Part shown: piece by piece, positions 16,405 through 17,708 of the stretch
Layout of the letters: every line of letters begins with the position of its first letter
Position numbering within the stretch: the first letter of the stretch is position 1
IMG/VR virus record: IMGVR_UViG_2563366975_000004
Direction: 5' to 3' (one strand)
Length of the DNA stretch: 35,452 bases
From: a virus
Taxonomy: Duplodnaviria; Heunggongvirae; Uroviricota; Caudoviricetes
Position numbers and translations under genes: made by a program
The notes under the pieces: model-generated
Told to the model about the DNA's origin: nothing
Database searches by the model: none
What the model saw: the letters and a program-made list of their open reading frames with translations, nothing else

Positions 16405-16785
16405 ATGACTGAACGCATAGAATTTGTTTTGCCTTACCCGCCAACGGTGAACACTTACTGGCGTCGTCGTGGCAGCACATATTTTGTATCAAAAGCCGGG
16501 GAGCGTTATCGCCGGGCAGTGGCGCTTATTGTTCGCCAGCAGCGGCTGAAATTAAGCCTGTCCGGAAGGTTGGCAATAAAAATTATTGCAGAACCACCGG
16601 ATAAGCGCCGCCGTGACCTGGACAATATTCTGAAAGCGCCGCTGGATGCGCTGACGCATGCGGGGTTGCTAATGGACGATGAGCAGTTTGATGAAATCAA
16701 TATCGTTCGTGGTCAGCCAGTATCTGGTGGACGTCTGGGGGTGAAGATTTACCCCATAATGCATGAAGAGCAGGTCAAAAAATGA
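16405..16785 (+). CDS. rusA: Holliday-junction resolvase RusA (126 aa)
   Basis: N-terminal FVLPYPPTVNTYW and acidic catalytic region RRRDLDN...D typical of RusA. Confidence 0.85.
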   Translation: MTERIEFVLPYPPTVNTYWRRRGSTYFVSKAGERYRRAVALIVRQQRLKLSLSGRLAIKIIAEPPDKRRRDLDNILKAPLDALTHAGLLMDDEQFDEINIVRGQPVSGGRLGVKIYPIMHEEQVKK

Positions 16786-17603
16786 AACTGGAAGATTTAC
16801 CGAAATACTACTCCCCAAAATCCCCCGGCCTGACTGATGCATCGGCCTCAACGTCGAAAGATGCGCTGAGTATCACTGATGTGATGGCCGCGCAGGGCAT
16901 GACACAGAATCGGGCTGAGATGGGGTTTTCTGCGTTCCTTGGGAAAATGGGCATTAGTATGAATGACAGAGAGCGGGCAACAGAATTGCTGACAGAATAT
17001 GCACTCAGTCGGTGTGATCGCGTGGCGGCGTTAAGAAAACTCCCGGCAGAAATAAAACCGGTAGTGATGCGCATTATGGCTTCGTACGCTTTTGAGGATT
17101 ATGCCCGCAGCGCAGCGAGTAAAAAGCAGTGCCCTTGTTGCTATGGGGAAAAATTTATTGAAAGCGTAGTTTTTACAAACAAGGTCCAGTATCCGGATGG
17201 TAAGCCGCCGGTATGGGCAAAGTGTACGAAAGGTGTGTATCCGTCTTACTGGGAAGAATGGAAAAAAAATCGGGAGGTGGTGAAAGTGTCTTGTCCTGAA
17301 TGTAAAGGGAAGGGGGAGATTTCCACCGCCTGTAAGGATTGCCGTGGGCGTGGTGTCGCCATTCATCGTGAAGAGTCGGTAAAACGTGGTATGCCTGTTA
17401 TCAGAGACTGCCAGCGTTGTGGTGGTCGTGGCTGTGAAAGACTACCATCAACGGAGGCATTTAATGCCATATGCAAAGTGACGAGTGCTATCACGCTTGA
17501 TACGTGGAAAAAATCAGTGAAACGCTTTTACGATACGTTGGTGGTTCGGTTTGACATTGAAGAGGCATGGGCGGAGCGGCAGTTAAAGAGGGTAACGCGA
17601 TAG
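16782..17603 (+). CDS. Putative late-gene antiterminator (Q-like) with DnaJ-type CxxCxGxG zinc-finger repeats (273 aa)
   Basis: Position after rusA and before a promoter/terminator module and late genes; CPECKGKG, CKDCRGRG and CQRCGGRG repeats. Confidence 0.5.
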   Translation: MKLEDLPKYYSPKSPGLTDASASTSKDALSITDVMAAQGMTQNRAEMGFSAFLGKMGISMNDRERATELLTEYALSRCDRVAALRKLPAEIKPVVMRIMASYAFEDYARSAASKKQCPCCYGEKFIESVVFTNKVQYPDGKPPVWAKCTKGVYPSYWEEWKKNREVVKVSCPECKGKGEISTACKDCRGRGVAIHREESVKRGMPVIRDCQRCGGRGCERLPSTEAFNAICKVTSAITLDTWKKSVKRFYDTLVVRFDIEEAWAERQLKRVTR

Positions 17604-17609
17604 TGTTGT

Positions 17610-17708
17610 TGATTTTTCCCGAATCTGTGGTAAATTTGCTCTAACGATGGGCGTTTTATGCCTGACGTTAGAAGATTTTTTACACCCCGCCGCCTGGCGG
17701 GTTTTTTA
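17610..17708 (+). promoter_or_regulatory. Candidate late promoter/qut region ending in intrinsic terminator (tR'-like)
   Basis: TTGATT...TAAATT promoter-like elements then GC hairpin caccccgccgcc-tggcgggg followed by TTTTTT at about 17686..17708. Confidence 0.45.

Follow-up and report, generated by a model that had tools for sequence, protein, structure and literature searches.

A probable late-gene antitermination cassette with a long, phi80-type Q protein in a lambdoid E. coli prophage

The Q gene, its neighbourhood and its occurrence

The gene studied here occupies positions 16782..17603 (plus strand) of the window, by which we mean the whole 35.4-kb stretch of DNA that was analysed (35,452 nucleotides). 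It starts with ATG and encodes a 273-aa protein of the Pfam family PF03589, in the long form of the phi80 type. A DUF968/HNH gene (15349..16404) lies upstream of a RusA resolvase gene (16405..16785), which directly precedes the reading frame, and this gene order places 16782..17603 at the end of a nin-type region, in the Q position. Downstream of the Q gene we found a small ORF (17830..18027) and a DNA methylase gene (18178..19227), followed by further late genes: two tRNAs, holin, lysozyme, Rz and terminase. One gene of this late region is split by an IS21-family element (21661..23912, minus strand); a strain with an identical Q has the uninterrupted gene. Because of this element, the competence of the prophage as a whole is uncertain and may be impaired. 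The sequence TTGCN6TTGC, the CII/C1-type site of antisense promoters of the paQ/a23 type, was absent from the Q gene (16782..17603) and showed no enrichment in the window. P22 differs in this respect, as it carries a C1-activated antisense promoter inside gene 23.

The Q allele is widespread. At a DNA identity of at least 80%, it was present in 2643 out of 5426 complete E. coli genomes, and six listed chromosomes matched the Q query at 100% identity; RefSeq names the product 'antitermination protein'. Proteins that are 92-95% identical are encoded by phages Evi, mEp460_ev081 and vB_EcoS-813R8 and by one Stx2a-converting phage, and relatives of lower identity occur in the isolated lambdoid phages HK225 (61%) and mEp237 (56%). 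A previous sequence-only reading of this DNA had described the Q as unusually large. These frequencies speak against that description, as does the 66-aa insertion that accounts for the extra length, which is common to the Q of phi80 (269 aa). Both the kind of element and the variant, the phi80-type long Q, were known before, and RefSeq already carries the annotation.

Late promoter, pause element and terminator

A PR'-type late promoter begins 5 nt after the Q stop codon with the −35 hexamer TTGATT (17609..17614, plus strand). In the same position lambda and P22 carry TTGACT, phi80 carries TTGCAT and close relatives carry TTTACT. The hexamer is followed by a 16-bp spacer, TTTTCCCGAATCTGTG (17615..17630, plus strand), and by an extended −10 element, TGgTAAATT (17628..17636, plus strand; TG at 17628..17629), whose hexamer TAAATT (17631..17636) is exactly the one of lambda PR'. 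Compared with lambda, the −35 hexamer of the prophage is weaker, while the extended −10 TG is present. The identity extends further downstream, as TAAATT, six nucleotides and AACGATGGG follow one another exactly as in the PR' promoters of lambda and P22. Both phages show the order TTGACT, a 17-nt spacer, TAAATT, six nucleotides and AACGATGG, and the annotation of P22 follows the same arrangement, with entries for the late promoter, the qut site, the 5′ nucleotide and the late terminator. By homology, transcription would start at A17643 and AACGAT, which is followed by GGG, would be the sigma70-dependent pause element (AACGATGGG, 17643..17651, plus strand, identical to +1..+9 of lambda PR').

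In lambda, sigma region 2 engages the pause element and RNA polymerase pauses at +16/+17, with a downstream preference for T-N-Y-G (PMC9191641). The prophage carries a TNYG motif, TATG, at 17657..17660 (+15..+18), one nucleotide downstream of the lambda position, which points to pausing near +17. Just upstream of the pause element, the −35-like site for a repositioned sigma region 4 is weak (TTGCTC, versus TTGACT in lambda). A consensus promoter scan of 16300..19500 returned no sigma70 promoter. The pair TTGATT/TAAATT matches at 8 out of 12 positions and the threshold of the scan was 9, so that the promoter was missed, which we judge to be an effect of the threshold; the extended −10 TG and the comparative data given below argue that the promoter is real.

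The comparison covered 60 loci encoding relatives of the protein, with one genome per species, together with lambda, P22, phi80 and Evi. About 50 related loci, drawn from many genera of enterobacteria, kept the cassette layout. Throughout the compared loci the pause element, [T/C]AACGATGGG, was nearly invariant, while the spacers fell into classes that tracked the Q protein. Specifically, loci whose Q is about 50-96% identical to the 273-aa protein carried TTTTCC[C/G]GAA[T/A]CTGTG, those with a Q of about 37-46% identity carried TTGCAA-ACGTGGCGGAA or TTTACA-AAGTGGCGAT, and lambda and P22 carried TATTGAATAAAATTGGG. Such a combination, a spacer that varies with the class of Q next to a nearly constant pause element, would be expected of a spacer that serves as the Q-binding element (QBE) and of a pause element read by the host sigma70. 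This conservation by class points to 17615..17630 as the probable Q-binding element of the prophage. The phi80 cassette is laid out in the same way, and its annotation includes the −35, the −10, a Q-binding site within the spacer and a terminator. Its spacer reads TTCGCGGAAAAACTGGA where the prophage has TTTTCCCGAATCTGTG, so that the presumed Q-binding elements differ, and its pause element is AACGCT rather than AACGAT. DNA binding by the phi80 Q protein was reportedly studied experimentally by Guo and Roberts in 2004 (J Bacteriol 186:3599, a paper cited in PMC9388147).

An intrinsic terminator of the tR' type was found by a terminator scan at 17686..17707 (plus strand). It consists of the hairpin CCCGCC-GCCT-GGCGGG (17686..17701), with a 6-bp G+C stem and a 4-nt loop, and of a T6 run (TTTTTT, 17702..17707). 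Relative to +1, the stem lies at +44..+59 and the last T of the run at +65, and the hairpin also formed when the predicted 67-nt transcript was folded to minimum energy (−21.9 kcal/mol, z −2.45). An unmodified transcript starting at A17643 would therefore be about 62-66 nt long. The scan, the fold and the related cassettes thus agree with the earlier view that a GC hairpin and T-run at about 17686..17708 form a tR'-like terminator, and the promoter/terminator module that had been proposed to follow Q is present at 17609..17707, as far as can be read from the DNA, with its −35, spacer, −10, pause element and terminator. The position of the terminator, at about +44..+65, differs from that of lambda (+193) and is similar to that of the promoter-proximal terminator of P22 (about +30..+58). 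Another terminator-like hairpin with a T-run was detected by the scan at 18014..18037 (plus strand), just after the small ORF.

A different function could be proposed for the hairpin at 17686..17707, namely that it mainly ends the early rightward transcript encoding Q and is not a tR' under Q control. It lies only 83 nt past the Q stop codon and would stop any unmodified polymerase arriving from upstream. However, the related loci place their terminators by the pause element and start point rather than by the end of Q. Of 52 cassettes, 50 had an intrinsic terminator no more than 230 nt from the inferred start; these terminators have several unrelated stem sequences and lie mostly at about +20..+69. 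The interval between the Q stop codon and +1 ranged from 39 to 78 nt. In phage Evi, whose Q is 94.5% identical, the hairpin is kept with a different stem and loop sequence. A terminator whose position follows the start point fits a tR' better than the mere end of the Q message, and in the records of P22 and phi80 the equivalent site is entered as the late terminator. We therefore consider it improbable that ending the early message is the main role of the hairpin. The two roles, as the end of an early message and as tR', are compatible.

The 5′ end of the short transcript is predicted to form a stem-loop (17643..17669, plus strand), with an AACG/CGTT outer stem and a GGGCGU/AUGCCU inner stem. 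The 5′ arm of this stem is the pause element itself, and a stem test applied to each sequence showed that the stem is conserved with compensatory changes. RNAalifold gave a poor consensus on +1..+33, because the 3′ arms are out of register, and no Rfam family was found at gathering thresholds in 17600..17720.

The presence of the IS21-family element raises the question of whether the cassette is an inactive relic of a defective prophage, in which Q and the promoter and terminator are intact and the late genes are no longer switched on. The gene split by the element, intact beside an identical Q in another strain, is in line with such decay, and many of the E. coli prophages that carry this Q allele are probably cryptic. 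On the other hand, the Q ORF has its full length and recurs at 100% identity in several genomes, all of its conserved residues and every element of the cassette are intact, and lysis and terminase genes are present downstream. A Q-modified polymerase would also be expected to pass through the inserted element, and alleles that are 92-95% identical are found in isolated phages. An inactive relic is, in our assessment, improbable.

A long member of the Qlambda family

Database searches assigned the 273-aa protein to the family of the lambda antiterminator over its full length. Its score for Pfam PF03589 (Antiterm), a family that has been equated with Qlambda (Yin et al. 2022, PMC9388147), was 170.6 bits (cut-off 26.7; E 7.8e-51), and the protein matched PHROG 127, 'anti-termination protein Q-like', from end to end (E 2e-110). 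With phmmer it retrieved lambda Q itself (7ubm_Q; PDB 7UBM) at E 3.7e-39, with residues 1-113 aligned to lambda 1-113 and residues 183-273 to lambda 117-207. In a four-way alignment that included lambda and P22 Q, the identity to lambda Q was 39%. The Q21 (PF06530) and Q82 (PF06323) families share the genomic position and the logic of QBE, sigma-dependent pause and terminator (PMC9388147). They have no sequence match to the 273-aa Q; neither was matched in the Pfam scan at E values up to 0.01, and PF03589 was the only antiterminator family matched. These results bear out the earlier assignment of the Q-position gene as an antiterminator, and the proposed homology search against Q families has ruled out that the protein belongs to an unrelated family. 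In contrast, the statements that the protein is different from lambda Q, and that the antiterminator call rests on position without sequence identity, do not hold against a Pfam score this far above the cut-off and an alignment covering both halves of lambda Q. Judged from its sequence, the protein is a Qlambda-family antiterminator and a true relative of lambda Q.

The predicted structure was in accordance with this assignment. An AlphaFold2 model built with 110 homologues (mean pLDDT 79) matched the fold of lambda Q, a helical body with a helix-turn-helix plus an arm. When it was compared with the PDB using Foldseek, the best eight matches were all lambda Q chains (top match 7ubn_Q, E 1.4e-13), with TM-scores normalised to the target of 0.65-0.77. 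In lambda Q (207 aa; PDB 4MO1, 7UBJ-7UBN), residues 1-60 form a disordered N-terminal segment, residues 61-113 and 153-207 a four-helix body and residues 114-152 a zinc-ribbon arm (PMC9388147). The two PF03589 proteins share the torus segment, the four-helix body, the zinc-ribbon arm and the four Cys ligands of the latter; the 273-aa Q differs in having 66 extra residues and, at the DNA level, a different spacer sequence. This family also includes, in the short 207-aa form, the protein of P22 gene 23, whose cassette comprises P late, qut and t late.

The N-terminal segment (residues 1-44; 16782..16913, plus strand) aligned with lambda Q without gaps, and its role can be proposed from the lambda structures (PMC9388147). 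Its G39, the counterpart of lambda G39, is conserved, and the low pLDDT of residues 1-44 in the model of the free protein is in keeping with the disorder reported for lambda Q. The C-terminal part of the body (residues 219-273; 17436..17600, plus strand; predicted helices 223-233 and 239-272) is the counterpart of lambda 153-207, which comprises the helix-turn-helix DNA-binding motif and the C-terminal helix. Here L268 and T272, corresponding to lambda L202 and T206, are conserved.

The protein contains three exact CxxCxGxG motifs, CPECKGKG (from residue 171), CKDCRGRG (184) and CQRCGGRG (210), and a degenerate fourth one, CPCCYGEK (117), in agreement with the three to four repeats counted previously in its 273 aa. 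In all six frames of the window, these three exact copies were the only ones, and only 36 out of 20,000 shuffled versions of the protein contained at least one. Among the 110 homologues, C171, C174, C184, C187, C210 and C213 were invariant, and C117, C119 and C120 were at least 90% conserved. Residues 181-218 (17322..17435, plus strand) are the counterpart of the lambda zinc-ribbon arm according to the alignments and the published structure (PMC9388147), and their predicted zinc ligands C184, C187, C210 and C213 align with lambda C118, C121, C144 and C147. Lambda Q itself has two CxxCxGxG motifs (C118 and C144), which bind the zinc of the arm (PMC9388147). The motifs had been described as 'DnaJ-type', in a protein said to differ from lambda Q; since lambda Q has them too, they do not set the protein apart from it, and CxxCxGxG is a trait of the Qlambda family. 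The protein can hardly be a DnaJ-like zinc-finger chaperone, or a zinc protein of some other kind with no link to antitermination, since it has neither a J domain nor a DnaJ C-terminal domain, its scores for Pfam DnaJ_CXXCXGXG (28.1 bits, threshold 32.7) and NCBIfam DnaJ_bact (22 bits, cut-off 377) fall below threshold, lambda Q homology accounts for its full length and the insertion alone retrieves only Q proteins or fragments from 1.84 billion representatives. The arrangement of the knuckles would also differ. In the Cys-rich domain of DnaJ the knuckles pair in a nested manner, 1-4 and 2-3. By homology to lambda, one zinc would be bound jointly by knuckles 3 and 4 of the Q protein, which would leave the other to knuckles 1 and 2 and give a sequential pairing.

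The additional length relative to lambda Q and P22 gp23 lies in a single clean insertion of 66 residues (115-180; 17124..17321, plus strand), placed by the four-way alignment at the junction of body and arm, between lambda residues 114 and 115. A knuckle marks each edge, C117/C120 (17130..17141) at the start and C171/C174 (17292..17303) at the end. In both structure predictions these knuckles lie at the base of a long two-stranded sheet formed by strands 125-136 and 159-170. The tip (137-158) had lower model confidence, and homologues differ greatly there in both sequence and length. Conservation and the AlphaFold2 model suggest that the insertion is most likely a second Cys4 zinc ribbon with a long beta-hairpin that is variable at its tip. 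The Q of phi80 (gp17, NC_021190 41137..41946) is 40% identical to the 273-aa protein over the full length and shares the insertion (about 66 aa), including the two additional Cys knuckles; its third knuckle is one residue shorter in the alignment.

We also considered an origin of the insertion by duplication of the lambda-type arm. Local alignment recovered only the 9-residue knuckle motif, with a score of 36, which was reached by 9 out of 1000 shuffles, so that a duplication is not demonstrable. When residues 113-183 were searched alone with phmmer against the same 1.84 billion representatives, they gave 18 matches. Ten of these were scanned against Pfam: eight matched PF03589, three of them only under the cut-off, and two had no Pfam match, so that no donor family emerged.

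Proposed mode of action and significance

Altogether, the gene order, the homology of the protein and the elements after its stop codon make it very probable that the region 16782..17707 is a late-gene antitermination cassette of a lambdoid E. coli prophage that works like lambda Q/PR'/tR'. With mechanistic roles taken from the lambda structures and pause rules (PMC9388147, PMC9191641), it would function as follows. The 273-aa Q would bind the class-specific spacer element at 17615..17630 through the helix-turn-helix of its body and its arm, as expected from lambda homology. RNA polymerase starting at about A17643 would still carry sigma70 and would pause when sigma region 2 recognises the −10-like AACGAT at +1..+6. 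Q would then load onto the sigma70-paused complex, the tip of its arm contacting sigma region 4 and the base of its zinc ribbon contacting the beta′ zinc-binding domain. Together with NusA, residues 1-44 of Q would fold into a torus or nozzle that narrows the RNA-exit channel and blocks formation of the terminator hairpin. The modified polymerase would pass the terminator at 17686..17707 and later ones, with the hairpin at 18014..18037 as a further site of read-through, and would transcribe the small ORF, the DNA methylase gene, the tRNAs and the lysis and morphogenesis genes. In the absence of Q, transcription would stop and leave a short RNA of about 65 nt.

The insertion may modify this scheme. 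In lambda Q, residues 110-112 and 117 contact the beta′ zinc-binding domain (PMC9388147). Since the insertion falls between these residues, the loading geometry or the interface may differ from that of lambda. It is conceivable, although we regard it as a tentative proposal that is rather unlikely to hold as a whole, that the insertion acts as a second zinc-ribbon arm with a fast-evolving tip, which adds a contact to NusA, DNA, the beta′ zinc-binding domain or sigma region 4 and thereby alters the loading geometry or the factor dependence relative to the solved lambda Q complexes. This assessment covers jointly the separate possibility that the 5′ stem of the PR' transcript is a functional RNA element of Qlambda-family cassettes.

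The significance of these findings is modest, as they amount to the correct annotation of a textbook cassette in a very common E. coli prophage allele. For annotation, CxxCxGxG motifs should not prompt DnaJ-like names, one of which has been given to at least one database entry. A closely related Q (92-95% identical) is also found in an Stx2a-converting phage. In Stx phages, toxin expression is understood to be driven by Q-dependent read-through (cf. PMC8065619). No structure of a long-form Q was present in the PDB copy searched. Structural work has dealt only with the short lambda Q, although about half of the complete E. coli genomes carry a Q with the long arm, and the role of the extra zinc hairpin is a tractable question.

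A predicted stem at the 5′ end of the late transcript

The first nucleotides of the transcript initiated at the PR′-type late promoter were predicted to fold into a stem. The stem would take up the opening 23-28 nt of this RNA (17643..17669 in the window), and its 5′ arm was the pause element itself, whose AACG(A) would base-pair with a (U)CGUU located at around +17 to +28. A 3′ arm complementary to the pause element was present in nearly all of the 34 distinct cassettes, while the loops were variable. Besides the window, the stem was predicted at the lambda (L001), P22 (L003) and phi80 (L064) loci and at five other loci encoding Q relatives (L027, L048, L051, L052 and L053). 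Among these, compensatory variants were identified, AATGA/TCATT in L048 and L051 and AACA/TGTT in L027, L052 and L053. Stems of at least 5 bp were predicted in 47% of the cassette sequences versus 16% of the shuffled ones. We found no mention of a 5′ stem in the PR′ transcript in the papers on Q antitermination that were consulted.

The promoter-proximal repeat and Q homologue records

In most of the non-E. coli relatives (L006-L037), the Q stop codon was followed by a 10-bp inverted repeat (AAATAGCTCA ... TGAGCTATTT), and the 3′ arm of this repeat overlapped TTTACT, the late-promoter -35 hexamer. This element, which could act as either a terminator or an operator, was absent from the window, where the -35 hexamer was placed 5 nt from the Q stop codon.

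Regarding the Q homologues themselves, most of the proteins in the homologue table carried a precomputed match to Pfam PF27659.1. One entry (P0041), a 258-aa protein from Serratia quinivorans with 58% identity, carries the name 'chaperone protein DnaJ' in its source, an apparent misnomer that the CxxCxGxG motifs seem to have prompted.

Features of the early region and of the Q-to-lysis stretch

The early region carried three RNAs on the minus strand, the C4 antisense RNA (4987..5074), isrK (5099..5175) and DicF (5415..5466), as well as a hok/sok-type toxin-antitoxin locus (14577..14901) comprising the sok RNA (14577..14748) and, according to RefSeq, hokD.

In the stretch that separates Q from the lysis genes, a 65-aa ORF (17830..18027) belonging to PHROG 331, of unknown function, and showing a weak winged-helix TrmB match was directly followed by a second terminator-like hairpin with a T-run (18014..18037). 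Next came an N6/N4 DNA methylase gene (18178..19227), tRNA-Met(CAT) (19277..19352, a tRNA-Ile according to RefSeq) and tRNA-Arg(TCG) (19360..19436). The sRNA STnc100 was present twice, at 19700..19893 and at 20169..20357. We take the layout of this stretch (18178..20357) to resemble that of Stx-converting phages; no toxin genes were found among the ORFs scanned within it. A 111-aa ORF on the minus strand (20383..20718) had no Pfam match and is annotated by RefSeq as the anti-adapter protein IraM in a strain with an identical Q region.

An IS21-family insertion in the late region

Further downstream, a minus-strand element of the IS21 family (IstB-like gene, 21661..22416; transposase gene, 22413..23912) interrupted a DUF1737/DUF6645 gene spanning 20964..25251, leaving two parts (20964..21770 and 24067..25251). 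The uninterrupted gene was found at 13198..15054 of L065, the locus from E. coli Ecol_316, whose Q is identical; there it is annotated as a SASA-family carbohydrate esterase. The insertion site lies within the Q-dependent late transcription unit.
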